A stretch of DNA of 64,000 bases. It comes from a virus. The notes beneath the pieces were generated by a model. That model saw nothing but the letters and a program-made list of their open reading frames with translations. It was not told where the DNA came from and did no database searches. The stretch lies in IMG/VR virus record IMGVR_UViG_3300017940_000554, positions 4,429 to 68,428 of that record, one strand, 5' to 3'. The position numbers were made by a program, and so were the translations under genes. Each line of letters begins with the position of its first letter. Within the stretch, counting starts at the first letter, position 1. Below, piece after piece: positions 24,199-52,461 of the stretch.

Positions 24199-25839
24199 AA
24201 ACTGTGTTGCTACGCTCGATTGCCGGTCGAGCGCACAGAATCGTGAAGTTGCATCTGTTCGATGCACTCAAACTGCGTTGCTACTTGCCGAAACCCTGCG
24301 GTCCACAGTCACGATGTTGTTGCATCTGTTCGATGCACTCAAACTGCGTTGCTACGACGAACATCGTTCACCAAGGGGTACCGTTTTCTGTTGCATCTGT
24401 TCGATGCACTCAAACTGCGTTGCTACCGGCGCTCGCACGGCCCTTCGCACTGACAACAAAGGTTGCATCTGTCCGATGCACTCTAACTGCGTTACTACCA
24501 ATGCTATGACAGGGAAGCGAACCCTATTTGTTTGACAGTTGCATCTGTTCGATGCACTCAAACTGCATTACTACACTACCTACCGATGCGTTTCCAGTAC
24601 CTTATCCAGTGTTGCATCTGTTCGATGCACTTAAACTGCGTTGCTACGACGTAATGACCCATGCTGGTGCGGGTCAGGCAAGTTGCATCTGTCCGACGCA
24701 CTTAAACTATGTTGCTACAAGATCATCCCAATCCTCTATGCTGGCACGACATTGTTGCATCTGTCCGATGCACTCAAACCACGTTGCTATCTATCTACAA
24801 ACCGATATGCCATATTCCGATGAGTTGCATCTGGCCGATGCACTCAAACTGCGTTACTATGTATCACCCACGCGCACCTGAGCTATGCGCCGCAGTTGCA
24901 TCTGTTCGATGCACTCAAACTGCATTGCTACTTGGTTCTTGGCAACAAGAAAATCTACACCAATCTGTTGCATCTACCAGATGCACTCAAACTGCATTGC
25001 TACAAAACCTATGGCCGTTTGTGTCGGCTTGTTACAGTTGCATCTGCTCGATGCACTTCGACTACATTGCTACCTATCTTAGAGATCAATATAACAAGTA
25101 CGACAATGTTGCATCTGGCCGATGCACTCAAACTGCGTTACTACGTATGACTGATTGACTGTCTGACCTGTGCTCCACTGTTGCATCTGTCCGATGCACT
25201 CAAACTCTATTGCTACATGAGCGGCCTCTTTATTCGTCTGATGGACAATGTTGCATCTACCCGATGCACTTAAACCGCGTTACTGCATCATTATCTTTTC
25301 CTCCATAAATGGCCACATGTTGTTGCATCTGCCCGATGCACTCTGCTTGCTTTGAGACGTATGTAGACAGCGTTATTAACAAGGACATTGGTTCGTTGCG
25401 TTTATTCGATGCACTTTACCTGCGTTGAAACCAAGAATGAGTCGACGTGAGACAGCCATGTGAGCGGTTGCATTTTCCCGATGCACTTTAACCACATTGC
25501 TACGCTATCACGTCCGTCTCTTAGGTCTCAGCATTGAGGTTGCATCTGCCCGATGCACTCATACCGCATTGCTACCCTTCTAACGCGGTGAATGCGACAA
25601 ACCATGTGAGGTTGCATCTGCTCGATGCACTCAAAGTGCGTTGCTACACCATTTGGTCGGCCATAAGGCCGGTCGTCCGAGCTTGCATCTGCCCGATGCA
25701 CTTAAATTCCATTGCGATCTGCGTCCGGTACCATGATTCCCAATGCCAGCGTGTTGCATCACTGCGATGCACTCTGCGTCCAATGTGTGCAACATGTCAT
25801 AAGTTGCATCTCTACGATGCACTGACATTTCGATGGAAT
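24179..25839 (+). CRISPR. CRISPR array 1a (~24 repeats)
   Basis: 37-bp repeat GTTGCATCTGTTCGATGCACTCAAACTGCGTTGCTAC and variants, mostly 33-39 bp unique spacers, degenerating toward 3' end. Confidence 0.95.
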
Positions 25840-25852
25840 CTCTGCCCAGGTT

Positions 25853-26131
25853 TTACCGTGCAGAAGAAGTCAGCCAGGAGCGCAACACCTCATTGGTACG
25901 TCTCTGCCATCCTTCCCCTGTAGCGCGCAGGCCCTCGATGACATCGGGAGACAAGCGAATCGAAATAGGCACTTTGCGAGGAGCTTTCTGCTTGCCACGC
26001 TGACGAAGAACACGGAGCGTCTTCTGTTCAGCTTTTGGCAGCGCAGAAAAAGGTACGAGAAAAGCAAAATCTTCTTCCGTTAATTCGCGCACTTCGCCAT
26101 CGTCGTCAATCAATTTTTTGGTGATCGCCAT
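25853..26131 (-). CDS. BrnA-family antitoxin (orphan)
   Basis: RG.QKAPRKVPISIRLSPDVIEGLRATGEGWQRRTNEVLR C-terminal RHH signature. Confidence 0.8.
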   Translation of the reverse strand: MAITKKLIDDDGEVRELTEEDFAFLVPFSALPKAEQKTLRVLRQRGKQKAPRKVPISIRLSPDVIEGLRATGEGWQRRTNEVLRSWLTSSAR

Positions 26132-26200
26132 GCGCTTATTGTATATGCAGTTTGCCAAGATCAAAACATTATTTTTGATGGAGAGCATTACGGCCCCGGT

Positions 26201-26810
26201 GTTGCATCTCCGCAAGGCACCGCAATTCCATTGCTACAAAAGAAATCACGTTCATCAATCCGAGGCTCTTCGGTTGCATCTGTTCAATGCACTTAAACTA
26301 CGTTGCTACCCATCGAGGATAAGGCGGCCGGAAATTAAGACCAGCCGTTGCATCTGTTCGATGCACTTAAACTACGTTGCTACCCGTTGTTGTGTGGCTT
26401 AACTTCACCACTCCCTAAGTTGCATCTGTCCGATGCACTCAAAATGCGTTGCCACTCTGACAACTGAGTAAAGATGCTGAAATACCTCATGTTGCATCTG
26501 TCCGATGCACTCAAAATGCGTTGCCACGAACGTAGTTTTCCCAACACCGCCTTTGTGATTAGTTGCATCTGCCCGATGCACTTCAACCGCATTGCTACAG
26601 GGCGCAATGGTCACGGCCTCTCTGACCTCGCAGTTGCATCTGCCCGATACACTCAAACTGCATTGCTGCGCGAGTCTGAAGAGGAATGTACTTCAGGTCG
26701 ACGTTGCATCTGTCCGATGCACTCAAACTGCATTGCTACGTGGAAGGAAAGCGCAGATGTTCGAGTTCATCAAGTTGCATCTGCACGATGCACTGTTATG
26801 GCGCTTTTAT
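26201..26810 (+). CRISPR. CRISPR array 1b (9 repeats, 8 spacers)
   Basis: Same repeat family; first and last repeats degenerate. Confidence 0.93.
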
Positions 26811-27355
26811 AGTACCTGCCGGGCGGTATGTGCTGCCAAGCTTTTTTTTAAATAATCCTCATACTTCCGCAGCACGATCCCCCGTGCAATCGGCTGGCAA
26901 CGGTCGACAAAAAAGATGCCTTGCAGGTGGTCAATCGCGTGTTGCACCGTGCGGGCCGTCTGCCCCCTGTAGACAGCGATGTGAGCCGCTTCAGGGTTAT
27001 CTATCGTTCCGCTGCGCACGTGCGCTATCTCGCTCCGCCAGACGCGCGCCGTGGCCTGTTCGGCAGGCGGCAGGCTCACGCATCCTTCCGCCTCCAGCAG
27101 ATCTTTCCCACCCAAATTCACAATCTCCGGATTCACCAGAATCTCGATCTTTTCGCTGGGCAGCGTCACCAGCGCCAGCTGCAAATATGCGCCCACCTGC
27201 GGTGCAGCCAGTCCTTTCCTTCCTCGCTCTTTCATCCGCTGGGTCATTTCTTCTATCAAATCTTCAATCTTGTCTGACCAACTCACCCGCCGACACAGCT
27301 TGCCCACCAGTTCCTGGCGATAAAGATGAATCGATGCTTCTTTTTGCTCCAGCAT
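26807..27355 (-). CDS. def: peptide deformylase-like protein (catalytic Glu replaced)
   Basis: GLAAPQVG, LVNPEI, EGCVSLP, QHAIDHLQG instead of HExDH. Confidence 0.8.
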   Translation of the reverse strand: MLEQKEASIHLYRQELVGKLCRRVSWSDKIEDLIEEMTQRMKERGRKGLAAPQVGAYLQLALVTLPSEKIEILVNPEIVNLGGKDLLEAEGCVSLPPAEQATARVWRSEIAHVRSGTIDNPEAAHIAVYRGQTARTVQHAIDHLQGIFFVDRCQPIARGIVLRKYEDYLKKSLAAHTARQVL

Positions 27356-27505
27356 TCGCTCATTCCTCCATCAAGGAGTCATTGCCATCAACGCAATGTG
27401 AGCGCAATTGTAAAAGAGGATTTCTGGAGCGTCGTCCAACGTCGCAAAAAAGAGAGAATTGTCCCTTATGAACAGGCATAGCGCTTCTAAAAGTGCTTCC
27501 TACGT

Positions 27506-28219
27506 TCAGTTCAGTTTCGAAAGATCGGATTTCTCCTGCGAAAAGAGGGCATCCACACTCTGCATCAGGGAAGTCATGTCAACCACCCCGTTTTTTACCT
27601 CGATGTTCTTCTTTAGCACCAGAGCGGAGTAAATCACATCCTGATGCTTGATTACTTCTACTTCCAGTTGATGGATCGTTTCTTTTTGCTTTTCGACAAC
27701 TTCTTTCTGCATCAAAAAGAGATTTTGCAAGTTATAATTCCGCCACGCACGTACCACGCACAATACCAGCATACAAACCCCTAATCCAGCAGCGTGCCAA
27801 AACCACCGAAAAAAACACTCTGCCGCAATCACCGCTCCTCCCGTAAGCAAGAGCAGACACGAAGCAAATTCATTCGCAAAAAAAAGGTGCGGATGGTTCC
27901 GAATCCAAGAAACGATCAATAGCTTTGCGGCTGTGCGTGGCTTCTCCGCAGGAACTTCGCTCATCGTTGATTCCTCTTTCTGTTGCTGCAACCACACACG
28001 CACGGCAGCATCGGCGGCTTCGCGGCGCGTCATGCCTGGCGGATCGCCTTCCATCGCTCCTGGAATAAAACAAGAACACCGACGCTCCAAGTGCGCTACT
28101 GAACCAATCACACCCCGCAATCCACAGTTCTTATGCATTGCGTCCTTGCCATTGTTTGTAGAGATGATCTGATCACCAATTGCGATCTCTTCGCCACAAT
28201 GAAGGCATTTCATCCGCAA
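27506..28219 (-). CDS. hypothetical membrane protein
   Basis: N-terminal Cys/His motif, 2 TM segments, coiled coil. Confidence 0.5.
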   Translation of the reverse strand: MRMKCLHCGEEIAIGDQIISTNNGKDAMHKNCGLRGVIGSVAHLERRCSCFIPGAMEGDPPGMTRREAADAAVRVWLQQQKEESTMSEVPAEKPRTAAKLLIVSWIRNHPHLFFANEFASCLLLLTGGAVIAAECFFRWFWHAAGLGVCMLVLCVVRAWRNYNLQNLFLMQKEVVEKQKETIHQLEVEVIKHQDVIYSALVLKKNIEVKNGVVDMTSLMQSVDALFSQEKSDLSKLN

Positions 28220-28554
28220 CTCTCCGCTTTAGCCAAAGTCTTCACTGGAATTTCTTTAGGCCATGCAGGCGCCAAAGGATGATCCCCGCAAACCGCTGTC
28301 AATGGCGCATGTTTTTTCTCTGGTTTCAGCATCACTGGCCCTGGCGCATTGAAGTCATACGCATAGAATTCACACAGCATGGTCCACATCACTTTAAGCC
28401 GTTTACCACACTCCGCACATCGCACTCTTCGGTTAAAACGTAAAAAACGAACAGTTGCACGCTGTTCTTCGGTAAACATCGAATTGGGTTTTGCCTCTAG
28501 AATCTCGACAGCAAGTATGCCAACACGCTTATCGTCTTCTTTCTTCACAGCCAA
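28210..28554 (-). CDS. hypothetical protein (CxxC)
   Basis: Operon-coupled ORF. Confidence 0.5.
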   Translation of the reverse strand: MAVKKEDDKRVGILAVEILEAKPNSMFTEEQRATVRFLRFNRRVRCAECGKRLKVMWTMLCEFYAYDFNAPGPVMLKPEKKHAPLTAVCGDHPLAPAWPKEIPVKTLAKAESCG

Positions 28555-28793
28555 ACCTCGACAATACAGGGGTCGTCGTTTTCAAAGCGTTCCAACCGGA
28601 AAAGCCCTTGCGGCACACATTCGCGGATCTCCGCAAGCGTATCGGCAAAGGCTGTTTCATCGGTTGCTATCATTACGCTTCCTGAGATATCCCAACGGCG
28701 CATCACATACTTGTCCGGATAATCCCGTGGATGTGCGTAGATCACCCATTGCGACAGTTCCATTCGTGGACGGTTCGGAGAATCGTTTTCCAT
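28545..28793 (-). CDS. hypothetical protein
   Basis: WVIYAHPRDYPDKYV...DDPCIVEVWL. Confidence 0.55.
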   Translation of the reverse strand: MENDSPNRPRMELSQWVIYAHPRDYPDKYVMRRWDISGSVMIATDETAFADTLAEIRECVPQGLFRLERFENDDPCIVEVWL

Positions 28794-28882
28794 CGTTTCA
28801 ATCCACGCACCGCTCGCAGTGCGACGGCTTTCCGCTGTTCGCTTCTGGCAAAAGGCGACGAACGAACAGCGGAAAACTGTTT

Positions 28883-29407
28883 TTATCGTTTTGCCAGATC
28901 GGCCAAGTTGGAAGAAACAACCCGGACAAACTCTTTTTCCGGCAATCCGTTTTCGCGGGCAATCTGTTCAGCCAGGCTTTCCAGCCGTCCCATTGCATAG
29001 CCCATCAAAGCCGCTGAAATCGGAGACTGATCCACACGCTTCTGCACCACCAGCGCCTTCGCAGTCGGTGCCGTCACTTCCGGTTTGGCTTTCACAGGAT
29101 GATGTGACTTTTTCGCAGGAATTGGTTTTTCCACCTTCTTGTTTTCCACCTTCTTGTTTTCCACCTTCTTGTTGTGCTTCTGGTGATAAGCCAAGGTAGA
29201 AGGAGCAACCCCGGCAACGCCGTGTTTTGCGTGGCGATGTGCTCCCAAACCACGCTTGTCCCCAAAAGCCACTTTCTTCCCCGCCTTCTGGCATTCAGGA
29301 CAAACGAAACTTTCCGGTTTTGATTCCATCGTGTCTTCCTCGCCTCTTAAAGTCTCCAAACTGGTCGAACTGGACTCGTCGGGAGCTGCATTTTCATTAG
29401 GAATCAT
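28883..29407 (-). CDS. C2H2 Zn-finger-like basic protein with KKVEN repeats
   Basis: CPEC...GLGAHRHAKH; tandem 15-nt repeats at 29129-29172. Confidence 0.5.
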   Translation of the reverse strand: MIPNENAAPDESSSTSLETLRGEEDTMESKPESFVCPECQKAGKKVAFGDKRGLGAHRHAKHGVAGVAPSTLAYHQKHNKKVENKKVENKKVEKPIPAKKSHHPVKAKPEVTAPTAKALVVQKRVDQSPISAALMGYAMGRLESLAEQIARENGLPEKEFVRVVSSNLADLAKR

Positions 29408-29473
29408 CTTAACGCCTCCACAAATCTTATGGATACTAAACACATGGAAAAAATTCAAAAGGTACTATTTGAA

Positions 29474-29860
29474 TCATTCCACCGCGCTCCACGGTTTCAG
29501 TCCGTACTTCTCCCACCGTGGGTCAAACCAACAGTTTTTTGGCGCACCAGCAAAGAACGGAGCAATCTGTTCGTCGATGAATCCTGCTAAACCGCAGCCC
29601 ACACGCACAACTTTAAAATCCAACTCCGAATGAGCCCGCGCGTATTCCAGAAACAGATCCACGCTGACATGAATATCCATCAGATGCCTTACTTTATACG
29701 GCGTTTCCTTGGTCGGAATGGCGTAAGCATCGCCTGTTCGGCCTTCACCCACGCCCCATTGCGCACCGTAACTTTCTACTGCGATCCGCGCCGTACCCGC
29801 ACCGTGAATGCCTTTGCAATTCGAGCCAAAAACGAAAATCCATTTACGAACTATACTCAT
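29474..29860 (-). CDS. macrodomain-like phage protein (A1S_2505-like)
   Basis: IFVFGSN..G.HGAGTA, YAIPTK, VGCGLAG. Confidence 0.7.
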   Translation of the reverse strand: MSIVRKWIFVFGSNCKGIHGAGTARIAVESYGAQWGVGEGRTGDAYAIPTKETPYKVRHLMDIHVSVDLFLEYARAHSELDFKVVRVGCGLAGFIDEQIAPFFAGAPKNCWFDPRWEKYGLKPWSAVE

Positions 29861-30485
29861 CCTGGTTGCCGTCTTTCTGCGCTTCGATCTTCTTGAACGA
29901 AACCGACCACGCCCAAGCGTTCTCCTCCCAATCGGTCTGCTTCAAACCATCGGCAAGAACATCTTCCAAACGAATCGCCTGCAAACGTAGAATCTTGATC
30001 TTGGTGACTTTCAACCATAAGCGCGCTGCCCACCGCGGCATCGTGGTCGGCGTGCGCCACAAATTATCCGAAGCTCCCCGCCCACACTCTTCCGGTTCTT
30101 TGCCTGGAAAATCCGAATAGAAGATGATTCGTTCGCGCCAATAGGGTTGTAAATCTGGCGTCTTTTCCACGCGCCAGTCTAGTGGCATCCGGTAGTCTTC
30201 AAGCTCCATCGGATAGGGCTCTACCCGTGCCCACATCTGCCGTACCCACAACTGGTCTCCCGGAAGCCCATAAGGACAACGCCAGTTCTGGTTTTTATCT
30301 TTGGCATCGTACCAATTAAGACGCGCCATGGTGTCTTGTATCAAGGATTTCGTGTTTTCCGGTTGCGGATAAAGCAACCGATGGGTGTGCGTGATCGTTC
30401 CATTTTCAATGCCTTCAATGCTGCTGGAGGAAAAGCTGATCGGCCGACGGCTCGAAGGCTGGGCGATAGAAACAAGGTTCTTCAT
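29844..30485 (-). CDS. ASCH/PUA-like phage protein
   Basis: CPYG.PGD.LWVR, MPRWAARL.L.VT. Confidence 0.6.
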   Translation of the reverse strand: MKNLVSIAQPSSRRPISFSSSSIEGIENGTITHTHRLLYPQPENTKSLIQDTMARLNWYDAKDKNQNWRCPYGLPGDQLWVRQMWARVEPYPMELEDYRMPLDWRVEKTPDLQPYWRERIIFYSDFPGKEPEECGRGASDNLWRTPTTMPRWAARLWLKVTKIKILRLQAIRLEDVLADGLKQTDWEENAWAWSVSFKKIEAQKDGNQDEYSS

Positions 30486-30838
30486 ACATTCGTCTTTCCC
30501 ACTGTGTGGACGTACACTTTCAGTTCTTTTTCCTGGGCAATCTTAATCATGTGTCGGGTTCCTGGGCTTTTCCCATTCCACAACGCAATCAAAGCGTCGG
30601 CGTAGTCCGCCATGCGCACATTCCGCTGATAGCCTGCGCTATGCCCGTCCTCTTGCCAGCGGGCGGGAAAGCTGACCACCGGAATCGAATGCTGCTCGGC
30701 CCACCAGCGCCCCATCTTGTCTACGCCTCGTGCTTCGCCACAAACGACTTCCGTGATTTCAAAACCGCACGCCCGAATCGCAGCATGAAGCTGTTGCATA
30801 TCGGTAATGGATCGACTGCCGGCGATGATCGTTTTCAC
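30482..30838 (-). CDS. SLOG-family (DUF2493/YspA-like) protein
   Basis: IIAGSR, G.ARGVD, AG..RN..M, WNGKS.GT..MI. Confidence 0.75.
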   Translation of the reverse strand: MKTIIAGSRSITDMQQLHAAIRACGFEITEVVCGEARGVDKMGRWWAEQHSIPVVSFPARWQEDGHSAGYQRNVRMADYADALIALWNGKSPGTRHMIKIAQEKELKVYVHTVGKTNV

Positions 30839-31416
30839 TCTTCGGCTCCCGCACTCAATCCGTCAGACGGTTTGGTCCAGTCTTCCGGCAATCGCATTTT
30901 GGCATACCATCGAAAACCCGAACGCATCCATCCTTCATAACTCACCTGATACCGGTAATGCTTGTTCGATACACACCACTCACCATACGGAGGGTTCATA
31001 TCCTGCAACAACAAGTCATCAAAACCGGGAAGATTTTCCCGAGTAATCAATCTCCAGTCATAGTCTTTTGCAAACTCTGTCACCACCGCATTTTCGTTAT
31101 GGAGTACAGCCTTGCAATGATCCGCAACTTCTGCCGCACGGCCTGCTGATCTTTTTCCGTTTTGATAATTTCCAAGAACTTCTACGGCACTTTTTAACAG
31201 CGTGCGCAACTTTTCCGCTTGTTGTGCAAGCCCCAGCCAAGACCACGAATCATTGCTCAATGGCCCACTTTGTAAAGCATCGGTCATCTCACTTAAAATC
31301 GTCTCTAAGTGCGTGCGCAGGGCATCTTTCTCGCTCACCTCTTGCTCTAGCTCTGCGATATACGCTTCAAGGAATGCCAGCCTTTGGCTACCACAACTAT
31401 TTTCGGCTTCCTGCAT
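30835..31416 (-). CDS. hypothetical protein
   Basis: Coiled-coil ORF in operon. Confidence 0.45.
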   Translation of the reverse strand: MQEAENSCGSQRLAFLEAYIAELEQEVSEKDALRTHLETILSEMTDALQSGPLSNDSWSWLGLAQQAEKLRTLLKSAVEVLGNYQNGKRSAGRAAEVADHCKAVLHNENAVVTEFAKDYDWRLITRENLPGFDDLLLQDMNPPYGEWCVSNKHYRYQVSYEGWMRSGFRWYAKMRLPEDWTKPSDGLSAGAEE

Positions 31417-31654: not shown

Positions 31655-31840
31655 CGTCGTTCCTCTCGCCTCATCGGCTTTTCTTCCAGCCAAACCGACC
31701 GTACAGCCTGCTGGTTTGGAAACCGTTTTTCATGCCCCCAATTTTTATTCCAATAACAGTATCCATTTTGAACCAGAAAAACCACATAAAAAGTCATTGT
31801 ATCCAGCTTTTTGTCCAATGCACGCAATTTTTTTACCCCC

Positions 31841-32042
31841 CCACCTGCGGTGGGGCCAATGGGCTTCGCCTTGACTGGGCTATTGGTAGTGGCAATCGCT
31901 CGGAAAGTCCGCTGCATGCAATGCCCTGCGGTGGGGCCAAAGGGCTTCGCCTTGACTGGGCTATTGATCGTGGCAATGGCTGGGGAAGTTTGCTGCATGC
32001 AATGCCCTGCGGTGGGGCCAAAAGGCTTCGCCTTGACTGGGC
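31841..32042 (+). repeat. tandem ~81-nt structured repeats (about 2.5 units) upstream of CRISPR array 2
   Basis: CCTGCGGTGGGGCCAANGGGCTTCGCCTTGACTGGGC-variable hairpin-GCTGCATGCAATGC with 81-nt period. Confidence 0.85.
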
Positions 32043-32080
32043 GAACGGGGGAAGATTTGTAAGACGTGGAAGAGTAGCAA

Positions 32081-32615
32081 GTTGCATCTGTCCGATGCAC
32101 TCTACTTGCATCGCCACCGCTTCAGGATAAGAACGACACTGAGACGCTGCTGTTGCATCTCCCCGATGCACTTTACTTGCGTTGAAATGGCTAGATCGGT
32201 TGATTTACCAACATACAAGGGTTGCATCTACTCGATGCACTCTACTTCGTGACTACTGACGGACACCCTGTTTTGCGTGTGTGGTGCAAGGTTGCATCTG
32301 CACGATGCACTTTAAACCCGTTGCGATCCCAATAAAGGAATGGTTGAACTCCCCAATCCCAGTTGCATCTCCCCGATGCACTTTACCTGTGCTGAAACGG
32401 CTAGGCTAGCCGATTTACCAACACATACAAGGGTTGCATCTACGCGATGCACTTTACCTGCGTTGAGACCGTATAGACCTGCAAGCTTCTGTTGGAGCCT
32501 TGTTGCGTTGCATCTGCCCGATGCACTTCAACTCCATGAAGACACACCTACGGCCTGCCAACGCTAGCCACCAACTGCGTTGCATCTCTCCGATGCACTT
32601 TAATTACGTGAGGTT
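32081..32615 (+). CRISPR. CRISPR array 2 (8 divergent repeats, 7 spacers)
   Basis: GTTGCATCT-N3-CGATGCACT hairpin conserved, 3' half variable. Confidence 0.88.
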
Positions 32616-33548: not shown

Positions 33549-33589
33549 GTGTCCATTCCCCGCGAAGGCGCTCATCGCGCCTTCGCTTT

Positions 33590-40768: not shown

Positions 40769-40784
40769 CTCTGCTCTCTGCTCT

Positions 40785-43612: not shown

Positions 43613-44483
43613 ATTGCTCGGTGGAGCGGAAGATGTGATCTTCCCACTCGCAATACGCCTTGCCTTCGGTCTTCGGATTGCGGCCCATGTGCCAGTCCGA
43701 AAGAGCCACTTCGTCGATTACCGCCTTCATCAACTCCACAGCGTTGGCCAAGTTGCCCCCTGCAATCCGCAAAGCTTCCTCTAGCCGCATCAGCCCTTTT
43801 CGCCTGCGCAAGGCGGTAAAGCTGTACGTCTTCGGGTTGCGTTTCATCACAGCCAGGTAATAGGCAAACACTTCCTTGAGCGCTTTCAGCCACAGCGGAT
43901 TTTCACTGGTGGTTACTGCAATCTCGTCGTCGAGTGCAGGCGTTTCGAGGCTTTCCGCTGCTGGTTGAACAAGCTCAGGAAAAAGATCATTGGACGAGGA
44001 AGGAGCGTTTTTTGCTCCTTCCGGCGCATTGGTTTTTGCAGTTGAAACTGAAGTTGAAGATGAAACTGAAGGGGTTGGATTTTGCTTGGGAGCAGGCTTA
44101 ACCTCAGTGGTTGTTTTTTGGTTAAGCAAAACGGGATTTCCGCCCTTTTTCCCTGCTTCGGTGCGGATTTCGCGCAATTTTTCGTCGCGCACCATACGCC
44201 GGCACATGATCGCACCAGTCTCCGCTTCACGGCTTGCAACTCCCGAGGTTAGCAGTGCGGTTAAGATGGTGGTTAGCTTTTGCTTATCCAAACCGAGTAG
44301 CCGGGCCAAAGCATCTTCGCTCATCGCTTGGCCATTTAGCACCAGCACGCCGCGCCGTTCGGATTCATGCATCAGGCAAAGCATTTCCCACCACACTCCC
44401 CGATCAAAGTAATCAAGCGACTGCACCCCGACATCTTTGCGCCAGTCTCCCGGATAGAATTGAAACGCAGGCAACTTTGTCAT
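43554..44483 (-). CDS. replication initiator-like protein (YdaU/DUF1376-like N-terminus)
   Basis: PAFQFYPGDW..D, RRMVRD...AGKKGGNP; upstream of primase-helicase. Confidence 0.7.
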   Translation of the reverse strand: MTKLPAFQFYPGDWRKDVGVQSLDYFDRGVWWEMLCLMHESERRGVLVLNGQAMSEDALARLLGLDKQKLTTILTALLTSGVASREAETGAIMCRRMVRDEKLREIRTEAGKKGGNPVLLNQKTTTEVKPAPKQNPTPSVSSSTSVSTAKTNAPEGAKNAPSSSNDLFPELVQPAAESLETPALDDEIAVTTSENPLWLKALKEVFAYYLAVMKRNPKTYSFTALRRRKGLMRLEEALRIAGGNLANAVELMKAVIDEVALSDWHMGRNPKTEGKAYCEWEDHIFRSTEQFEHWLQRAQEPSGKGVARG

Positions 44484-46141
44484 TTCGTGTGCCCTTCATC
44501 GCTCATGCGCTCCGTTTCAAGGTAGCTTTCGATAAACGCTTGCGCCGCTGGAACACAGATCGCATCGCCGTAGAGGCGAAGTCGTCCCACGCGGGCGGCA
44601 CACCCATGAGCCAGCGGCTGTGTGCCGGATTCAACTGGCCGGAACTTTCCATCGCGGCATCCGATCCAGTCAGCACCTCTCCAGAAGCCGTTAAGCGGAC
44701 CGGGCCGCTCAATTGCGCTACGTTCTCTAGCGCCGCCTGTGCTTTCGTTCCATCCGGCTTGCGCTGGCTCATCGTCACTGCATCCGATTGCACCCTGCCA
44801 CCATTCGGGCAATTCGGCGTCGGCCACGCCGCCAGTTGCGTAAACTTTGTCAGGTCGCTTCCTGTGCAGTTCTCCGTTTGGATATTCCCGCATTTCGGGT
44901 CCGTCTGCCTTGGCGTCGGCCAACTCGCTAATTCCACCGTCTTGCGGCTGCTGTCGTTGTTCCCCGCTTCGTTGTTCCCGTTCTGTGCAGGGGTTCCCGC
45001 CATCGGCGTCGGCCAGCCCGCCAGATGTTTCGCTTGATTGGCTAACTGATCCATGTGCATTCGCCCCGTACCCGTCTCCGTTACATGAAGATGGCTGTTC
45101 GCGCCCTTCCAATCCCGTTCCGCTGGTGTCGCCCACGCCGCCAAGGACGCCTGAATCGCCAGATCCTGACCATAGCCCTCGCGCAGTCGCGCCTTCCCCG
45201 CTGTCTGGTCTGTGTCGTGCGGTGCCGGTCCTGTCGGTGTCGCCCACGCCGCCAAATTCGCTTGACTGTGCAGCGTGTCCGCTTGCCCCCGATGTGCTCC
45301 CGCACATTCCGAGTCCTCGCTGCGTGGCGTGCTCCAGCTCGCCAGCATCGCGTAGTCGTTCAGGTTCGAGGATTGTGCGATCCCACTTGGTCTCTTCGAA
45401 ACGAGCGCACGTTTCGCTTGTCCGCCGCCGGTCATATCGCTCACTTGCGGACTCGGCCAGCCGGTCAGTGTCGCCGCATTGCTCAGGTCGTGCGGAAAGG
45501 AATGGTTGTCTGCTTCTGTATTGCCCCGCAGCTTGTCGTCGTGTGTCTGCGGCGTCGGCCACGCACTCAGCGGCGAAGCCGCCATTAGCCCCACCGCAGG
45601 TGGCGCAGGTGGCGGTGAAGTAGAGGCGTTGACGGATGTGCGGAGCGCCGACGCTGCACGCTCCAAGTACCGCCTTCCCAACGGCGTACTCTTGTGCTTC
45701 CAGGTCAGTTTGAACAAGGTCGAGCCAGCCATGTCCAATCGCGGCACTAACCTGCTCTCCAAAGATTGTTGTAGGGTGACACTGGCGGATGAGTCGTGCC
45801 CAAGCAGGCCAGAGGTGACGAGGGTCTGCAAACCCTTCGCCTTTGCCCGCTGCGCTGAAGCTCGGGCAGGGGCAACTTCCGGTCCACACTGCCCGGTTGT
45901 CGTGCCATCCGGCTTGGCGCAGGGCGAGGCTCCAGAATCCGCCTCCGGCAAAGAAGTGGCATTGGGTATATCCCACAAGGTCATTTGGCTCGACATCGAC
46001 AATGCTCCGTTCATCCACATCTCCCGGTGCAATTGCATTGGCCCGAATTGCTTCTCGCAGAATCTCTGCTTTCAGCGTGTCGATCTCGTTGTAATAAGCA
46101 GCCACCCGCATAGCCTCAGCCTCAGTGTTGCATTTGTTCAA
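44480..46141 (-). CDS. C5-cytosine DNA methyltransferase, alpha-type frame
   Basis: Permuted start YYNEID, HFFAGGG, GSCPCPSFS, FGEQV, APHIRQRLYF, motif X LRLYGDAI. Confidence 0.85.
   Translation of the reverse strand: MNKCNTEAEAMRVAAYYNEIDTLKAEILREAIRANAIAPGDVDERSIVDVEPNDLVGYTQCHFFAGGGFWSLALRQAGWHDNRAVWTGSCPCPSFSAAGKGEGFADPRHLWPAWARLIRQCHPTTIFGEQVSAAIGHGWLDLVQTDLEAQEYAVGKAVLGACSVGAPHIRQRLYFTATCATCGGANGGFAAECVADAADTRRQAAGQYRSRQPFLSARPEQCGDTDRLAESASERYDRRRTSETCARFEETKWDRTILEPERLRDAGELEHATQRGLGMCGSTSGASGHAAQSSEFGGVGDTDRTGTARHRPDSGEGATARGLWSGSGDSGVLGGVGDTSGTGLEGREQPSSCNGDGYGANAHGSVSQSSETSGGLADADGGNPCTEREQRSGEQRQQPQDGGISELADAKADGPEMREYPNGELHRKRPDKVYATGGVADAELPEWWQGAIGCSDDEPAQAGWNESTGGARERSAIERPGPLNGFWRGADWIGCRDGKFRPVESGTQPLAHGCAARVGRLRLYGDAICVPAAQAFIESYLETERMSDEGHTK
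44503..45996 (-). CDS. overlapping alternative-frame subunit with ~8 W(P/S/A)TP repeats and motif IX
   Basis: Open frame nested in the MTase gene; ends in LNPAHSRWLMGVP. Confidence 0.65.
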   Translation of the reverse strand: MSSQMTLWDIPNATSLPEADSGASPCAKPDGTTTGQCGPEVAPARASAQRAKAKGLQTLVTSGLLGHDSSASVTLQQSLESRLVPRLDMAGSTLFKLTWKHKSTPLGRRYLERAASALRTSVNASTSPPPAPPAVGLMAASPLSAWPTPQTHDDKLRGNTEADNHSFPHDLSNAATLTGWPSPQVSDMTGGGQAKRALVSKRPSGIAQSSNLNDYAMLASWSTPRSEDSECAGAHRGQADTLHSQANLAAWATPTGPAPHDTDQTAGKARLREGYGQDLAIQASLAAWATPAERDWKGANSHLHVTETGTGRMHMDQLANQAKHLAGWPTPMAGTPAQNGNNEAGNNDSSRKTVELASWPTPRQTDPKCGNIQTENCTGSDLTKFTQLAAWPTPNCPNGGRVQSDAVTMSQRKPDGTKAQAALENVAQLSGPVRLTASGEVLTGSDAAMESSGQLNPAHSRWLMGVPPAWDDFASTAMRSVFQRRKRLSKATLKRSA

Positions 46142-46228
46142 TGCACTGCAACTCCGTCGCGAAAAGAGCGTAACGGGTCATCAGCCACAATAAAAATCTG
46201 TAGCTCAAGGCACGCTGCTAGAAGTGAG

Positions 46229-46441
46229 TTATGCCGCTCTTTCGGCCACCTTGGTCGCCAACCAGTTTTCAATATCGCTGGTCAGCCACCCGGTGGCGCG
46301 CTGGCTCAATTTGACGGGCAGGGGAAAGGAGCCTGCTTTTTGGAGGGTGTAGATGGTGCTGGCACTCAGGCCCACCATGGCCAGAACCTGTTTTTTGCGC
46401 AGAATCATGGGCCGCTCGTGTAACTCAATTTTTTTCTTCAT
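46229..46441 (-). CDS. alpA: AlpA-family excisionase/regulator
   Basis: LRKKQVLAMVGLSASTIY...GSFP.PVKL..R.TGW. Confidence 0.85.
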   Translation of the reverse strand: MKKKIELHERPMILRKKQVLAMVGLSASTIYTLQKAGSFPLPVKLSQRATGWLTSDIENWLATKVAERAA

Positions 46442-46561
46442 TGGGATAACCCCAGAAAGAATCTAGGTCGATTATTCACGCTTTTTAAGGGTTTGCAATT
46501 GCGATTTAAGAAACAAGAACTATTGGTAGAGCTACGGTTTAAATGAACAAAAACGGCGAAT

Positions 46562-46612
46562 AAAAAACAGCCGGTCAAGAGATTTTCTTCTCACGGACCG
46601 GCTGTTTTTTTG
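46562..46612. terminator. bidirectional rho-independent terminator
   Basis: AAAAAACAGCCGGTC...GACCGGCTGTTTTTT. Confidence 0.6.
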
Positions 46613-46634
46613 AACGATGCAAGAAAAAATGCCT

Positions 46635-47891
46635 TCACGCAACGAGGCGTATCCTGGACGAAATGCTGTTACGCATTTCGTCCAGGGCATCCGCCCACGC
46701 TTGCATCATTTCTGCCCGTTGATCCAGATACTGGGCGTAGTTATAAGCGCGTTCCGTGGCATTTCCGTTCAAGTGGGCTAGTTGTGTTTCCACGTATTCC
46801 CGAAGGTATCCATGTTCGCGCAACCAGGTTGAAGCGATTCCTCTCCATCCATGGCCCGTCATCCGTTTTCTGTATCCAAGCCGTTCCAGCATTTTCAAAA
46901 GCGTATTCAGCGACATGGTTTCATAACGAAGGGTCCGGATCTTCGGAAACAAGTAGGGAGTATTCCCTGTCATTCTGTAGAGCTGTTCCAGCAGCTGGAT
47001 GGATTGTTTGGCCAGGGGAACGATATGAACGGTTTTCATCTTCATGCGTTCTCCTGGGATGCGCCATTGTTTTTTCTCAAAGTCGATCTCCTCCCAACGG
47101 CCTCCGATCAGTTCTCCAGTGCGCACGAATGTCAGGCTGAGCAGTTCCATTGCCATCCGGACTAGCACATTGCCGCCGTAGTCTCTGATCTTGCCAAGCA
47201 ATTCCGGCACATCTTTTATCTCCAAACGGGCAAAATTCTGGGCAGTCTTTCTGCTCAGGATGTGTTTCGGCCGGATTCCAGAAGCCGGATTCACATCGAC
47301 AAGACAGCAATCGATGCCGTGTTCATAAACTTGGCTGATGTGCTGCAGTTCGCGCAGAGCAACATTGTGGACTCCTCGCCCGTCCACTCCTTGGATCAAT
47401 CGGACAATATCGGCGCGGGTAATTTTCTTGGGATGCCATTTCCCGATGACTGGAAAGATGTCGGTTTCGAACCGGCGTTCAGAAGCGAGGGCATAGCGCG
47501 CATTTTTATCTTCTCGCCACCACGCCAGCCATTGGCGGGCGAGTGCTTCAAAGGTGAATCCGTTGTCTTTTTCTGCTTGGGATTGCAGTTCCTGTTTGGC
47601 CTTGACTTCTTTTTTGGCTTCTTTCCGAAGGGCCATTGGGTCGACGCCAGTTGCCAGGAGAGCCCGAGCCTGGGAGTGGAGAACCCGAGCGTTTGCCAGT
47701 GATATATCTGGGTACTTCCCGAGCGCCATTTCCTTTTGCTTACCTTCAAACATGTATTTCCAGCGCCACAATTTGCCTCCCTGGGGGGTGATCAGGAGGT
47801 GCAATCCGTGCTGGTCGGTAAGGCGATACGGCTTGAGATTCGGCTTGGCTTTCTCGCATTTCAGGTTGTTCAATTCGCTCAAAGTGCCCAT
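46635..47891 (-). CDS. int: P4-type tyrosine integrase
   Basis: Arm-binding N-terminus (GLHLLITPQGGKLWRWKY, LGKYPDISL), VRTGE, RMK, HGWR, LAH, AYNYAQY. Confidence 0.92.
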   Translation of the reverse strand: MGTLSELNNLKCEKAKPNLKPYRLTDQHGLHLLITPQGGKLWRWKYMFEGKQKEMALGKYPDISLANARVLHSQARALLATGVDPMALRKEAKKEVKAKQELQSQAEKDNGFTFEALARQWLAWWREDKNARYALASERRFETDIFPVIGKWHPKKITRADIVRLIQGVDGRGVHNVALRELQHISQVYEHGIDCCLVDVNPASGIRPKHILSRKTAQNFARLEIKDVPELLGKIRDYGGNVLVRMAMELLSLTFVRTGELIGGRWEEIDFEKKQWRIPGERMKMKTVHIVPLAKQSIQLLEQLYRMTGNTPYLFPKIRTLRYETMSLNTLLKMLERLGYRKRMTGHGWRGIASTWLREHGYLREYVETQLAHLNGNATERAYNYAQYLDQRAEMMQAWADALDEMRNSISSRIRLVA

Positions 47892-47926
47892 GTTTACTGC
47901 CTTTCCTCGACTTTTTGTGTTTTTTA

Positions 47927-48245
47927 GAAATACCATGTTTTCAAAACATGGTATTTCTTGCGATCAGCCCTAAAAATACCATAAAAAAATCGCTGTTTCG
48001 CAAAGAATCTCTTCACGCTTCGCTGTGCTTATTGAACAGGAGGCGAGCCAGAAGATTTCTGTAAGCGTTAGATTTTATGGGAGATATATTCGGAAGAAGC
48101 GTCGAGGAACGTCGAGAATGAACGAGAATGTAGTGATTGAAAAGCTGCCCAAATTTTTTGAAAGTGCATCCGATTTATCTTTATTATCAACTATTTACAG
48201 TTTAAATAACGAAAATACCATGAAAAATACCAGGGAGCCTAAAAA
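47927..48245. other. attP-like region with arm-type repeats
   Basis: AAATACCA(T) repeats at ~47928 (with inverted partner), 47973, 48213 and 48224 flanking non-coding DNA upstream of int. Confidence 0.5.
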
Positions 48246-48246
48246 C

Positions 48247-48287
48247 TAAACACGTAGGGGCCGCAATCAGCGGCCCCTACGTGTTTA
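48247..48287. terminator. long perfect hairpin (terminator-like)
   Basis: TAAACACGTAGGGGCCGC/GCGGCCCCTACGTGTTTA. Confidence 0.6.
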
Positions 48288-48293
48288 TTCCCT

Positions 48294-48542
48294 CTAGGTG
48301 GGGTCTTGGCGTTCAGCCAAAACAGCATGTCGTTCAAGCGTGCTTAGAAATGTCTGCAGTTCGGAGACACGAAAACGATGAGTGAATTTACCTGTTCTTC
48401 CCATAGGGAAAGCAATGGAAGGCAGGCGTCCTTCATGCGCCATCCGACGCACAGTCAACGACGAAAAGCCAAGATACTCAGCCGCTTCGTTGGCATTGAT
48501 AAGAGGCTCAAGTGGCTGGTTCGTTCTAAATTCCATACACAA
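48294..48542 (-). CDS. excisionase-like HTH_17 protein
   Basis: LINANEAAEYLGFSSLTVRRMAHEGRLP...RFRVSEL. Confidence 0.75.
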   Translation of the reverse strand: MCMEFRTNQPLEPLINANEAAEYLGFSSLTVRRMAHEGRLPSIAFPMGRTGKFTHRFRVSELQTFLSTLERHAVLAERQDPT

Positions 48543-48773
48543 TCTCCTCCCCTGTTTGGATCAAAACATCGAGATCTTTCTAAATTCCACAACTTAACCC
48601 TTTTTGAACCGAAATGCAACACTTCTTGACTGAGAATCACAATTTATTTCAAAAATCGTAGGAAAAAAGACAAAAACGATAAAAATATATCGAATCGATT
48701 ACCGAGGAAATGGCCAATTGCACAGAAGGAAAGGCAGTCCAGAATCTGGACTGCCAGAATGAAGTTCGTTTTT

Positions 48774-49127
48774 TCAGGCAACTTCTTCCGGGGAAGCAGG
48801 TACCGGAGCAGGTGCCTCCTCGTTTGCAGGAACGCTTGGCTTCTTGGTCCGTTCCCGTTTTTTCATTGGTGTTGCTGCCTTATAAACATAGATGGTTTTC
48901 TTGCCTTCCGGGCACGATACTCGCAGCGTGAGCTGGTTATCCTGGCTGTATTTTCGAATCGCATTGGCAGCCCGAACGGCCAACTTGTAGGAATCGAAAT
49001 CCTCCACAACAACGCGCGGCAAGTGATCTGGGCCAAGGGCTGCATTCACAGCCGCATCGATCAAAGTTTTGTATTGATCAATCAGCACCTTGCGCGGGAA
49101 AGCCGCAGTTTGATCCATCATTCGCAT
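48774..49127 (-). CDS. hypothetical protein
   Basis: AGGAG SD before MRMMDQ. Confidence 0.45.
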   Translation of the reverse strand: MRMMDQTAAFPRKVLIDQYKTLIDAAVNAALGPDHLPRVVVEDFDSYKLAVRAANAIRKYSQDNQLTLRVSCPEGKKTIYVYKAATPMKKRERTKKPSVPANEEAPAPVPASPEEVA

Positions 49128-49271
49128 TGACTTATCTCCTCCAGACCGTTTTTGATACGGAAAAATCATATCGCACTTACCACAGCGATTGGCCTTATTT
49201 CATGGAAGGCCGCAATTTTCCTGTAAAGCAGGCGAAAAAACCGTTTTCTACATTTCAAAAGCCCATTGCCG

Positions 49272-50360
49272 CTATTCCGTAAACATTTCGTCTGGTGGTT
49301 CCTGGTTGGTTTTTTGCGGCTTTTCTCCAAATTCTTTTCCGATAGTTTCAAGAACAAGTTGGAACTGGTCCTGCCGAATCAGGTAACGGTGCTGAATCTC
49401 AAATTCCCGATCAAGCAGCCCCTTGATCTGGTCTTCCGACAGATTCAGTTTGCGCTGTACATCAAACAGCATGACTGCATCGTCAAAAGAGATGTGAATC
49501 TTCGGATCGTGGCCTGGCTGTGTCTCCCATGATTCCCGCTTGCTTTTTTTGCCGCTTTTTTTCCGCAAACTGCAATCAGCCGCATGGCCATTCAAAACGC
49601 GGCATTCCGCACAAAGATTGTCCTGTTCTGGAGGCCGCTGTGTGCCTTCATGGCCGTGTCCACGATTGGGCTCGGTTGATACATGGAGCGTGCCCAGATC
49701 CCGCTTTGTTTTCTCCTGAGCGTGGTCTACAGTCTTTTCTGGAGGCAAGAAGGCAGGTTCCTGTGTCGGCATTTCTTCGTCCACGTAGACGCCGCCCAGC
49801 TCTTCTGGCCAGCCCCGACGCAATGCCAGAGCTTCGGCACATTTTGTCAGCTGATTGACCGGCATTTTGCCCCACATCGCATTCGGTTCGAATTTGCCGC
49901 TTTGCTTATCCTTGCGTGTCTGCACAAATTCGCGATAGCAGGCAGTTGCGCCAAATTCGTGCCACGCGCTGTCATTCTGCGAGAATTTTTTCACCCACAT
50001 AGTGACGCGCAGATCCACCTTGCCACTGTCTTCTACCAGGGGAAGTTTTTCCGAAGGCATATAGACGCCCGTGCGGTTGGCAATCGAGCGATAGCCGTCG
50101 ATACCCGTCTGGATGGTCATCTTCTCGACGTAGGCGTTTTTTTCTAGGTCCCAAGCTGAACGCTTCACGGCGTGAATCTGCCGCTGCAGTGGATCAAGAT
50201 GGCGCACCCGCGCCACATGACAAAAGAGCGCAAATTCTTCGTCCGAGAGGCCCGTGGCCACGGTGCGTTTAATCAGTTCAAGATTCTCCGGGCGCTCCCA
50301 ATCCTGATTGAGGGTAATCGCGCCTTGAGGTTTCGCAATTGTCATTGCCGTTTCAACCAT
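49272..50360 (-). CDS. bet: Bet/Redbeta-family ssDNA annealing protein
   Basis: LDPLQRQIHAVKR, IQTGIDGYRSIANRTG, W.KMP.NQL.KCAEALALRRGWP. Confidence 0.88.
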   Translation of the reverse strand: MVETAMTIAKPQGAITLNQDWERPENLELIKRTVATGLSDEEFALFCHVARVRHLDPLQRQIHAVKRSAWDLEKNAYVEKMTIQTGIDGYRSIANRTGVYMPSEKLPLVEDSGKVDLRVTMWVKKFSQNDSAWHEFGATACYREFVQTRKDKQSGKFEPNAMWGKMPVNQLTKCAEALALRRGWPEELGGVYVDEEMPTQEPAFLPPEKTVDHAQEKTKRDLGTLHVSTEPNRGHGHEGTQRPPEQDNLCAECRVLNGHAADCSLRKKSGKKSKRESWETQPGHDPKIHISFDDAVMLFDVQRKLNLSEDQIKGLLDREFEIQHRYLIRQDQFQLVLETIGKEFGEKPQKTNQEPPDEMFTE

Positions 50361-51405
50361 TCGACACCTCTTTTGTAATCTGTACCAACTTCGGTTTTTT
50401 GCTGTATGGGCACAGATCGAAATATCCGCACCAACGACTTGCGCATCCCCACCAGTTTTGGTTTGCTGGCATAAAAACACCCGTTCTCATGGCATGGATC
50501 AAATTTGTGAACCGGTTCAAAAAAACCTGCACGTCATTCATATCCCGTGTCGTCCCCGTGGGCACGTATTTCACCATGGGTTTGGCCGCGTTTGACCGGA
50601 CCAGATAATCCAGCACCATTTTGTCGGGCAATTTCCTGTCCACCACATAGGAAGCCATCGCATAGGCGGTCAATTGTTCGGAATCGTCTGCGGTTCCCGC
50701 TTTATCGTTCCCATCCATGAACGACGGAACAGGCGATTTTGCCGATGTTTTCGTATCGCGAATCACCAGCAATTCCTTTTCCCCATCGTGCTGGATTTCC
50801 TGAACATCCTGTTCGCCCACAAAATCAATTCCCGTGCGCGCAGCAGCATTGAGGGACCGTGCCTGGGCATGCAGCAATTTCGCGGCGGATGGATCGGGCA
50901 TATTCTCGGCCGCCAGATGGAATTCTTTTGCCCGCGTGCGCAAAAAAGAATCCATGTCCACGGAAAATCTACGCCGTGTACGCACCGCCTGAATTTTCGG
51001 TGCCGCCTCGTCATGGTGCAATCCGGACAAACAAACCGCCTTGTCTTTAGCCTCGCCCAATACTTGGTCAAGGCTTTTGCCCTCTTTTTTTTCTTCCTGG
51101 TCCAGTTCAATAGGTTCGTTTTTTTGTTCCTCATCGAATTTTGCTGCGGAAATTCCCAGCACATCTTCGCGCCGCAGCAATTCGCCCGTCTCGATTTTGT
51201 GATCAAGATCCTGGGTCACCGACTCATCCGTGGATTTGCCCACCAGCAAAAAGGCATTCGGTGGGGATTTAATGCCCAGAATGTAGCGGAACAGAAAACG
51301 CTGACCGCAATCTGCCGCCATATTCAGCGCAGAAACGTGAATCTGCTGCCGCTGCTTGGCCTTGGGCGTAATTGTTTCGATGGGGGGAACAATGGAATCT
51401 CTCAT
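50353..51405 (-). CDS. PD-(D/E)XK exonuclease (Cas4/RecB-like)
   Basis: N-terminal Cys, IRDTKTS, QLTAY, C-terminal CASRWCGYFDLC; coupled to bet. Confidence 0.8.
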   Translation of the reverse strand: MRDSIVPPIETITPKAKQRQQIHVSALNMAADCGQRFLFRYILGIKSPPNAFLLVGKSTDESVTQDLDHKIETGELLRREDVLGISAAKFDEEQKNEPIELDQEEKKEGKSLDQVLGEAKDKAVCLSGLHHDEAAPKIQAVRTRRRFSVDMDSFLRTRAKEFHLAAENMPDPSAAKLLHAQARSLNAAARTGIDFVGEQDVQEIQHDGEKELLVIRDTKTSAKSPVPSFMDGNDKAGTADDSEQLTAYAMASYVVDRKLPDKMVLDYLVRSNAAKPMVKYVPTGTTRDMNDVQVFLNRFTNLIHAMRTGVFMPANQNWWGCASRWCGYFDLCPYSKKPKLVQITKEVSNG

Positions 51406-51517
51406 AAGAATCGCCTTCGCCGTTCTTGGGTAATCTGAGAGATAGTCCGAACTGATTTTTTTGTCTACGGTAAAAAATGGTGTAGACGCAAAGCTGTGTT
51501 TGTCCTATGCTGCGCGC

Positions 51518-51715
51518 ATGGAAAAGAGACCAAAGCTGGCCAAAGAGGGAAAGCTCAGCAAGGATGATCCGGAGTTTTATTCAAAGATTGCGGCGATTGC
51601 GGGGAAAAAACTGGTGCGCAAGCATGGCACAGAATATTTTTCTAAATTAGCGGCCAAGAGCCATCCTCGGGATCACTATAACGGTGGTCGTCCGCCCAAA
51701 AAAAAGGTGGCATAA
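51518..51715 (+). CDS. small basic KGG-repeat-like protein, probably leaderless
   Basis: EFYSKIAAIAG/EYFSKLAAK repeats; TAGACG-17-TATGCT promoter 7 nt upstream of ATG; runs into array 3. Confidence 0.6.
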   Translation: MEKRPKLAKEGKLSKDDPEFYSKIAAIAGKKLVRKHGTEYFSKLAAKSHPRDHYNGGRPPKKKVA

Positions 51716-52461
51716 AGATCTGTTTAATGCACTCAAACTGCATTGCTACATTCCATCACCCAAGCAAGTTTGAGAGATTTCAGGTTGCATCTGTTCGATG
51801 TACTTAAACTGCGTTGCTACGCGGTACTCTTGACAGAGTGGGGATTTTATGATGTTGCATCTGTTCGATGCACTTAAACTACGTTGCTACCATGAAAAAC
51901 GCAAATAGGGCTTGACAGATTTTCAGTTGCATCTGTTCGATGCACTCATACCGCATTGCTACGGCCGATGAACTGCCCGGTCTGGTGGTGGACAAGTGTT
52001 GCATCTGCCCGATGCACTCAAACTGCATTGCTACAGTGGTCGAAGGAGATTGAAAAGCATGCGTTTTAGTTGCATCTGCCCGATGCACTCATACCGCATT
52101 GCTACCATGGCGGGGAAGCTGCGCGCTGGATCGAGCAACAGTTGCATCTGCCCGATGCACTCATACCGCATTGCTACGAGCAATGTGCAGGGATAGGATC
52201 GCCATCTTCAAGTTGCATCTGCCCGATGCACTCAAACTGCATTGCTACGAGAGCGACTCGACAGAATGCCGGCTCACGTAAGTTGCATCTGCCCGATGCA
52301 CTCAAACTGCATTGCTACTTCTCTTGCGCCATGCAACGTCAACAACAATAAAGTTGCATCTGCCCGATGCACTCAAACTGCATTGCTACGATTCACGGTT
52401 GATAGCCGTGAAGGGGACTCTGTTGTTGCATCTGCCCGATGCACTCAAACTGCGTTGAGAC
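51713..52461 (+). CRISPR. CRISPR array 3 (11 repeats, 10 spacers), convergent with cas12
   Basis: GTTGCATCTGCCCGATGCACTCAAACTGCATTGCTAC; most homogeneous array. Confidence 0.95.

Follow-up and report, generated by a model that had tools for sequence, protein, structure and literature searches.

Three kinds of described systems lie closest to the locus analyzed here, a Cas12m-like effector gene and four repeat-spacer arrays on a 64,000-nt stretch of viral DNA (hereafter the window; positions 4,429 to 68,428 of the 68,428-base IMG/VR record IMGVR_UViG_3300017940_000554). These are the single-effector CRISPR systems of type V-M, the plasmid-borne type IV-A systems, and the CRISPR loci of huge phages. 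Passages of PMC11656645 describe type V-M and type IV-A systems in conflicts between elements, with interference by binding in type IV-A, and cite a natural self-targeting spacer of that type in Pseudomonas oleovorans. According to excerpts of PMC11013384, Cas12m proteins, even those with a D-E-D catalytic triad, bind beside T- and C-rich protospacer-adjacent motifs (PAMs) and do not cut. For huge phages, the relevant portion of Al-Shayeb et al. (2020, PMC7162821) reports effectors that in some cases lack catalytic residues, and the authors proposed altered host regulation. An earlier note on the window, made from its letters, had read its spacers as candidate phage CRISPR interference (CRISPRi) against host genes. 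The matches assembled here instead lead us to favor, with moderate confidence, guides that serve mainly in conflicts with other mobile elements, a few host-derived spacers being tolerated among them.

The effector (Table 1) has Cas12m as its nearest characterized Cas12 relative, by sequence as well as by fold. Its sole Pfam domain is Cas12f1-like_TNB (E 7.7e-7), and the top two of five matches in a sequence search of the PDB were Cas12m (E 2e-5), covering residues ~571–729 of the C-terminal part only, with RuvC motifs I, II and III aligning with those of the Cas12m chains. An AlphaFold2 model built from 32 relatives (pLDDT 84) returned Cas12m as its four top Foldseek matches (E 1.8e-19 to 3e-16, TM 0.53–0.59 on the target), Cas12f and TnpB ranking after them, and the fold alignment with Cas12m has 13–15% identity. 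Across the 32 aligned relatives, C694, C708 and C711 are invariant, as is the D of RuvC-III; at the first acidic position, 18 have D, 10 (the window protein, with LEIGW, among them) have E, and the four most distant have H, together with Q at RuvC-II. By analogy with its DNA-binding, non-cutting neighbors, it is a fair inference that the effector acts as a silencer, and the cas12m label of the earlier note is supported as that of the nearest relatives in sequence and fold.

Like the type V-M systems of MmCas12m2 and GoCas12m, the locus has a single effector whose C-terminal RuvC-like domain is interrupted by a TNB zinc ribbon and which would be guided by CRISPR RNA (crRNA) only; it is likewise borne by a mobile element, lacks an adaptation module (within the record), belongs to a family with variable or non-canonical RuvC triads and appears to have a T-rich 5' flank. 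It is unlike them in size (745 aa against ~580–615 aa, and thus outside the compact ~600-aa form), in a sequence similarity confined to the C-terminal RuvC/TNB part rather than extending over the whole length, in its location on temperate Acidobacteriaceae phages with up to five arrays per genome, and in that binding without cutting is only predicted here. Its E-E-D triad is also absent from the Cas12m clades (HEK/HQK, HDD, DED/NED and DND) laid out in the part of PMC10442227 that treats them. With huge-phage CRISPR systems, the locus shares phage-borne arrays in which some spacers match host genes; here, however, the carrier is a temperate provirus of the ~70-kb class, the matches are to orthologues (33/35 at best) rather than exact, and no inferred PAM stands beside the host sites that were mapped firmly. 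The likeness to plasmid type IV-A would lie in CRISPR silencing by a mobile element without cutting, mainly against rivals, with spacers obtained in trans and occasional chromosomal targets tolerated, whereas that system is a multi-subunit class 1 complex with a DinG helicase, is plasmid-borne and consists of unrelated proteins.

The carrier is a temperate phage or provirus of Acidobacteriaceae (Terracidiphilus-like) bacteria from peat. IMG/VR classes the record as a provirus (CheckV completeness 51%), and the window encodes a major head protein, a portal protein and a large terminase besides a tyrosine integrase, which bears out its phage nature as assumed in the earlier note. RecT, a PD-(D/E)XK nuclease, a primase-helicase, DNA methylases and a resolvase are also encoded. 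All seven genome loci that encode effector relatives come from Terracidiphilus sp., Acidobacteriaceae or Acidobacteria metagenome-assembled genomes. Profiles of Cas1 and Cas2 had no match in the 68,428-base record (controls positive), an absence that holds for this partial record only.

The four arrays, with regular direct repeats and unique spacers of similar length, are genuine CRISPR arrays. Built on a common 37-nt repeat in a single orientation, they hold 47 spacers of 32–39 nt and one 13-nt remnant, and no second copy of a spacer was found within the record. Seen on the effector strand, a 6-bp hairpin closes each repeat and leaves 2 nt to the spacer. Among the 40 distinct repeats of the window, conservation is at least 95% in the hairpin half, against 50–72% for the loop and 53–90% for the 5' half, part of this conservation being built in, as the repeats were located by searching with the hairpin half. 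No inverted repeat copy, the possible anti-repeat of a trans-activating crRNA (tracrRNA), was present on the other strand at up to 12/37 mismatches. Because array A4 lies on the effector strand, the hairpin precedes the spacer and no inverted copy was found, we read the crRNAs from the minus strand. Each crRNA would thus consist of a repeat-derived 5' handle ending in the conserved hairpin, followed by the spacer, and we propose that it guides the effector alone, with no tracrRNA.

Overall, the composition of the spacers is that of phage rather than host DNA. Their mean G+C is 0.498 in the window (n = 47) and 0.502 in related arrays (n = 211), compared to 0.515 for the phage and 0.589 for 244 kb of host loci (a value that may be slightly too high, the stretches sampled being gene-rich), and the window spacers fall at z = -1.3 from phage-like 34-mers and z = -7.0 from host 34-mers. 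Against 101 genomes of the host genus (E <= 0.01), only two of the 47 window spacers, A4_4 and A3_7, gave matches in multiple genomes, and the 22 spacers of A1 and eight of A2 gave no conserved-gene signal with 3–6 candidates scored per genome. Five related arrays (102 spacers) were tested against the same genomes, and three of their spacers had multi-genome matches, to genes for a family 4 glycosyltransferase (GT4; 4 genomes), a ParB-domain protein (3 genomes) and a NuoE-type [2Fe-2S] ferredoxin (4 genomes). Spacers from genus-conserved genes therefore number 5/149 (~3%), the two of the window included. Two other related spacers had strong single-genome matches, one to a DUF2158 gene and one to a 315-aa open reading frame (ORF) of no known family.

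The mapped targets outside housekeeping genes look mobile. The contig of the DUF2158 gene also encodes an IS91 transposase and an AEP primase and has a relaxase-like gene; the target of spacer A1_3 belongs to no Pfam family, has a C-terminal domain that matches phrog_16834 and recurs with varied N-termini, and has an integrase gene 2 kb away; ParA- and ParB-type genes make up the rest. Spacer A2_5, taken in the earlier note for a ParA/Soj Walker A motif and correctly so at the motif level, is 88–93% identical to genes annotated as "ParA family protein" on plasmids of unrelated bacteria. Its lack of any match in the 101 genus genomes (E <= 0.01) suggests an accessory gene rather than a conserved chromosomal soj. 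A 24/25 match of the same spacer in one genome locus (L010) lies in a Mrp/NUBPL-type P-loop gene, and we rejected it as reflecting the motif only. No self-target or cross-target was found when the 48 window spacers (remnant included) and the 211 related ones were compared to the 68-kb record and ~0.9 Mb of loci, among them the loci of the related effectors.

All eight peptides quoted in the earlier note were recovered from the spacers at their coordinates and strands (the final V of ASGTMIPNASV requires one base of the next repeat), and the clearest case is A4_4, whose DNA matches identify it as copied from an rlmI-type gene within the host genus. This spacer matches ~10 of 401 family genomes, 15 of the 101 genus genomes and, over the spacer proper, 47 of 280 genus genomes, with a best match of 33/35 in four genomes. 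Identity increases from family to genus, and the differences from 17 orthologues are almost all synonymous (host peptide FSEADELPGLVVDKYG). The target genes, on contigs of 0.4–5 Mb, carry PUA_3 and Methyltrans_SAM domains by Pfam (L013, L014), so that the RlmI-type motif is confirmed at the DNA level; the crRNA from A4_4 would be antisense to the rlmI-type mRNA.

Spacer A3_7 matches 7 of the 101 genus genomes at 83–86% (best host identity 30/35). The GT4 label (GxPVVAT motif) that it had received has to be dropped, because the matched genes carry GDP_Man_Dehyd and Epimerase domains (Pfam) and the motif HTYGLPxLTTNCSNNY, and because annotated rfbB genes on plasmids also match (best 32/36, on an Azospirillum plasmid); the peptide belongs to the dTDP-glucose 4,6-dehydratase (rmlB/rfbB) motif. 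For A1_7, the SEC-C reading was right as a motif. Three weak matches were obtained from the 401 family genomes, and two of three fetched correspond to the last codons (28/34) of ~1030-aa proteins ending in ...GRNDPCPCGSGKK(F/Y)KKCHG, which we take to be SecA-like. Where these have P, the spacer encodes W (CWC vs. CPC), and its flank-proximal bases match at 15/15 (L113) and 14/15 (L114) positions.

Read in crRNA sense, the 5' flank was TTY at five of nine mapped spacers, for ~3% expected per site by chance. The A1_3 site has TTC, as does the secA-like site of A1_7 in both genomes; the GT4 site of a related spacer (locus L080) has ATTC in all three genomes fetched, of four matched; and the sites of related spacers from L072 and L057 have TTT. 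The remaining flanks are CGT, CAT or TGT at the rlmI site, GGA or AGA at the rmlB site, CGG at the nuoE site and TGT, TCG or TCT at the ParB site. On the opposite side, checked for eight spacers (A1_7 not among them), TTY occurred throughout only at A1_3, and at rmlB in two of five orthologues. A TTY at the rlmI site can be excluded, as it would require an in-frame stop codon, which means that the true source also lacked it. These flanks tentatively support a T-rich 5' motif and the chosen crRNA strand, tentatively because the sites are homologous rather than identical and some of the nine mapped spacers belong to related arrays. The earlier note had proposed to derive a PAM consensus from such matches; TTY appears at a bare majority of the mapped spacers and is missing at the two host genes identified most firmly.

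Taken together, these data suggest the following organization: a temperate Acidobacteriaceae phage carries a Cas12m-like effector served by four arrays, and this effector would, as inferred from Cas12m, bind DNA beside 5'-TTY and block transcription or replication without cutting. Other mobile elements that share these hosts (rival phages, plasmids, islands) would be both source and target of most guides. Spacers would be drawn in trans, since the record lacks Cas1 and Cas2. A small minority (2–3 of 47 here, ~3% across relatives) would come from conserved chromosomal genes and could persist because a binder is not lethal; as their sites in rlmI and rmlB lack TTY, these two are probably inert by-catch rather than parts of a host-gene repression program. 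The claim of host-directed CRISPRi is retained in part. At least two spacers (rlmI-type and rmlB) do represent conserved chromosomal genes of the host genus, and related-phage arrays hold comparable ones (GT4, NuoE-type ferredoxin, and ParB, whose context may be chromosomal or mobile). Host genes as the main target, in contrast, fit poorly with two matching spacers in 47, a phage-like G+C, the lack of any exact protospacer and the missing TTY at rlmI and rmlB.

Several observations weigh against guides directed mainly at mobile elements. No exact protospacer, whether viral, plasmid or chromosomal, was found (best host match 33/35), and 42 of the 47 spacers had no match in any collection searched, so that a mobile-element origin rests on composition and a few imperfect matches. 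The arrays had no spacer match among GenBank phages and only motif-level matches among plasmids (to ParA, rfbB and ABC ATPase genes), and a viral collection returned nothing for back-translated peptide patterns of A1_3 and the ParA spacer or for exact 26-mers of A4_10, A1_22 and A3_1. The large genome searches scored only 2–6 candidates per genome and would have missed weaker host matches, and some of the nine spacers behind the flank analysis belong to effectors only ~51–64% identical to that of the window. Finally, independent relatives also carry spacers of host origin, and two such sites (GT4 and secA-like) have the TTC that a functional host-directed guide would show.

These last two observations also speak for the strongest alternative, a narrowed form of the earlier note's idea, in which some guides are kept for silencing genes of the lysogen's host (rmlB and the secA-like SEC-C gene here, GT4 in a relative), a programmable form of lysogenic conversion or takeover that we regard as possible though unlikely. 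Surface-sugar synthesis accounts for two of the five host-gene spacers (rmlB and GT4), the effector belongs to a class of binders, and the array contig with the rlmI spacer was present in all four peat runs examined (three of which may be from the source campaign). The parts of PMC7162821 that deal with host-gene spacers provide a precedent in huge phages. This has to be set against best host identities that stop at 33/35 (rlmI), 30/35 (rmlB) and 28/34 (secA-like, with the P-to-W change), the absence of TTY at the first two of these sites, the harm that silencing secA would do to the lysogen, and a spacer composition that leaves host-derived guides few.

A broader version, in which a widespread family of temperate Acidobacteriaceae phages combines its Cas12m-like binder with multi-array guides to regulate host envelope and secretion genes besides excluding rivals, seems to us unlikely. 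If true, PAM-flanked guides would turn down GT4, possibly rmlB, and the SecA-type SEC-C gene in the lysogen, an RNA-guided lysogenic conversion that would alter the cell surface and block superinfection. More generally, if some guides do silence host genes, common soil phages would be reprogramming their hosts by RNA-guided repression. Host regulation by phage spacers has already been raised for huge phages (PMC7162821), though it is not known to have been demonstrated, and the small effector found here could make it testable.

Alternatively, the seemingly cellular spacers could be aimed at mobile copies of these genes (rfbB of a plasmid or chromid, partition or SEC-C domain genes of a phage) rather than at the chromosome. 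The rmlB spacer fits the Azospirillum plasmid rfbB (32/36) at least as well as any genus chromosome (31/36), the ParA spacer has no conserved-gene signal in the genus, and CPC of secA is replaced by CWC in the SEC-C spacer. We nevertheless consider this quite improbable as a general explanation, given the rlmI spacer, which differs from chromosomal orthologues almost only synonymously and gains identity from family to genus, and given that searches of phages, plasmids and the viral collection found no mobile copy of these genes.

That the motif resemblances arise by chance from 48 short spacers read in six frames is very improbable overall and applies only to four weak motifs (carboxypeptidase-regulatory, TIR-like, DinB and HEPN-like), which had no DNA-level support in the 401 family and 101 genus genomes (2–3 best candidates scored per genome; 288 six-frame peptides in all), as opposed to the whole-spacer matches of rlmI, rmlB, ParA and SEC-C, which fall in the same gene across genomes with the frame kept and for which chance is refuted. 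A regular expression for the carboxypeptidase-regulatory motif matched nowhere in the 354 kb of host loci scanned, an uninformative sample. Spacer A4_6 illustrates such chance matches: its ~11 family-genome matches, one of them in G252, are spread over three unrelated genes (an FkbM methyltransferase, a phosphoesterase-family protein and UbiD), and were discarded, indicating that GC-rich spacers gather matches of this kind.

Beyond the question of targets, the locus defines a large uncharacterized branch next to Cas12m. A protein search gave 104 clusters of effector relatives, most of 725–780 aa, of which 32 were aligned, and a scan of metagenome contigs gave 51 loci. Unusual E-E-D or H-Q-D RuvC sites and up to five arrays per phage mark this branch, and no description of the effector family in Acidobacteria phages was found in the literature searched. 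The loci from metagenomes, genomes and viral records together contain 385 spacers, 211 of them unique and none shared with the window, which makes them a natural data set on the tolerance of self-derived spacers by binding-only CRISPR systems. In most related loci that hold an array, it starts after the effector on the same strand, as A4 does.

Table 1. Coordinates of the features discussed. Positions are those of the window, except in the last row, which concerns related loci.
Feature	Positions	Strand	Description
Effector gene	52519..54756	(-)	Cas12m-like type V effector, 745 aa, RuvC + TNB zinc ribbon; RuvC triad E447-E630-D718
Array A1	24177..25839	(-)	24 repeats (end ones degenerate), 22 spacers + 13-nt remnant
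Array A2	26201..26810	(-)	9 repeats, 8 spacers
Array A3	32081..32615	(-)	8 repeats, divergent; 7 spacers; contains a near-duplicate repeat-spacer unit
Array A4	51713..52461	(-)	11 repeats, 10 spacers, last repeat degenerate; 57 nt downstream of the effector stop codon
Lone repeat copy	46127..46163	(-)	Extends into the C5-methylase ORF at its 5' end; ~470 nt separate it from the integrase gene
Spacer A4_4	51963..51997	(-)	Fragment of rlmI-type rRNA methyltransferase (PUA_3 + Methyltrans_SAM); peptide ADELPGLVVDK
Spacer A3_7	32544..32578	(-)	Fragment of rmlB/rfbB (dTDP-glucose 4,6-dehydratase)
Spacer A1_7	24648..24681	(-)	SEC-C zinc motif RNDPCWCGSG
Spacer A2_5	26528..26561	(-)	ParA-type deviant Walker A, NHKGGVGKTTF
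Spacer A1_3	24356..24389	(-)	31/34 to a 270-aa gene in one family genome
Tyrosine integrase gene	46635..47936	(-)	Shows temperate life style
C5 cytosine methylase ORF	44480-46141	(-)	
BrnA-type antitoxin gene	25853-26215		Between arrays A1 and A2
Peptide deformylase gene	26807-27355		Directly after array A2
Opposite-orientation arrays, L042-L044 and L082	12305-12555, 8487-8737, 2223-2473, 3150-3329		Repeats without hairpin complementarity

The effector-A4 region was found at 94–98% of sampled words in 20 metagenome runs of peat or wetland, which belong to 19 coded studies (2017–2025); five of these runs may be the source. No RNA run was among the listed sequencing runs that hold this locus, and GenBank phages included no near relative of a 24-kb stretch of the phage. 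Around A4, a promoter scan gave no promoter-like site, and a terminator scan gave three terminator-like sites on the minus strand for 1.6 expected, a weak excess.

The effector relatives with H and Q at the first two RuvC positions recall the H-Q-K clade of Cas12m (first-acid changes: residue 447, relatives P0096-P0103). As for the lone repeat copy outside the arrays, it could yield a cr-like regulatory RNA. At the left end of A1 (24112-24195) lies a palindrome resembling repetitive extragenic palindromic (REP) elements (core CCACCTGCGGTGGGGCCAA), and three 81-nt copies of it stand in tandem at the left end of A3 (31844-32086). This core is multi-copy in two Acidobacteriaceae-lineage genomes with effector relatives (more than 20 places in G001, several in G002), and the palindrome may represent a repetitive element of host type that serves as a terminator behind the arrays.

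The repeats themselves are unusually heterogeneous (24248-26810 and 32081-32615), with 40 distinct versions among 49. Their 5' half falls into two sub-types, …GTAGCAAC… and …GTCTCAAC/GTTTCAAC…, mixed inside arrays, a hint that arrays of different phages have recombined. Within A3, the units at 32152-32220 and 32362-32432 are near-duplicates (84% over 62 nt), suggesting an old duplication followed by drift, and hence an array that evolves by mutation rather than acquisition.

Among the relatives, A1 and A2 had only repeat-driven matches to the related provirus record G504, which itself has repeat clusters at four separate places. Four close relatives (L042-L044 and L082, effectors 74–86% identical) have a short degenerate post-effector array in the opposite orientation. 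Multi-array layouts are common, with L079 and L072 as further examples, and in L073 (110-19796) five arrays, 67 repeats in all, surround the effector gene within 22 kb.

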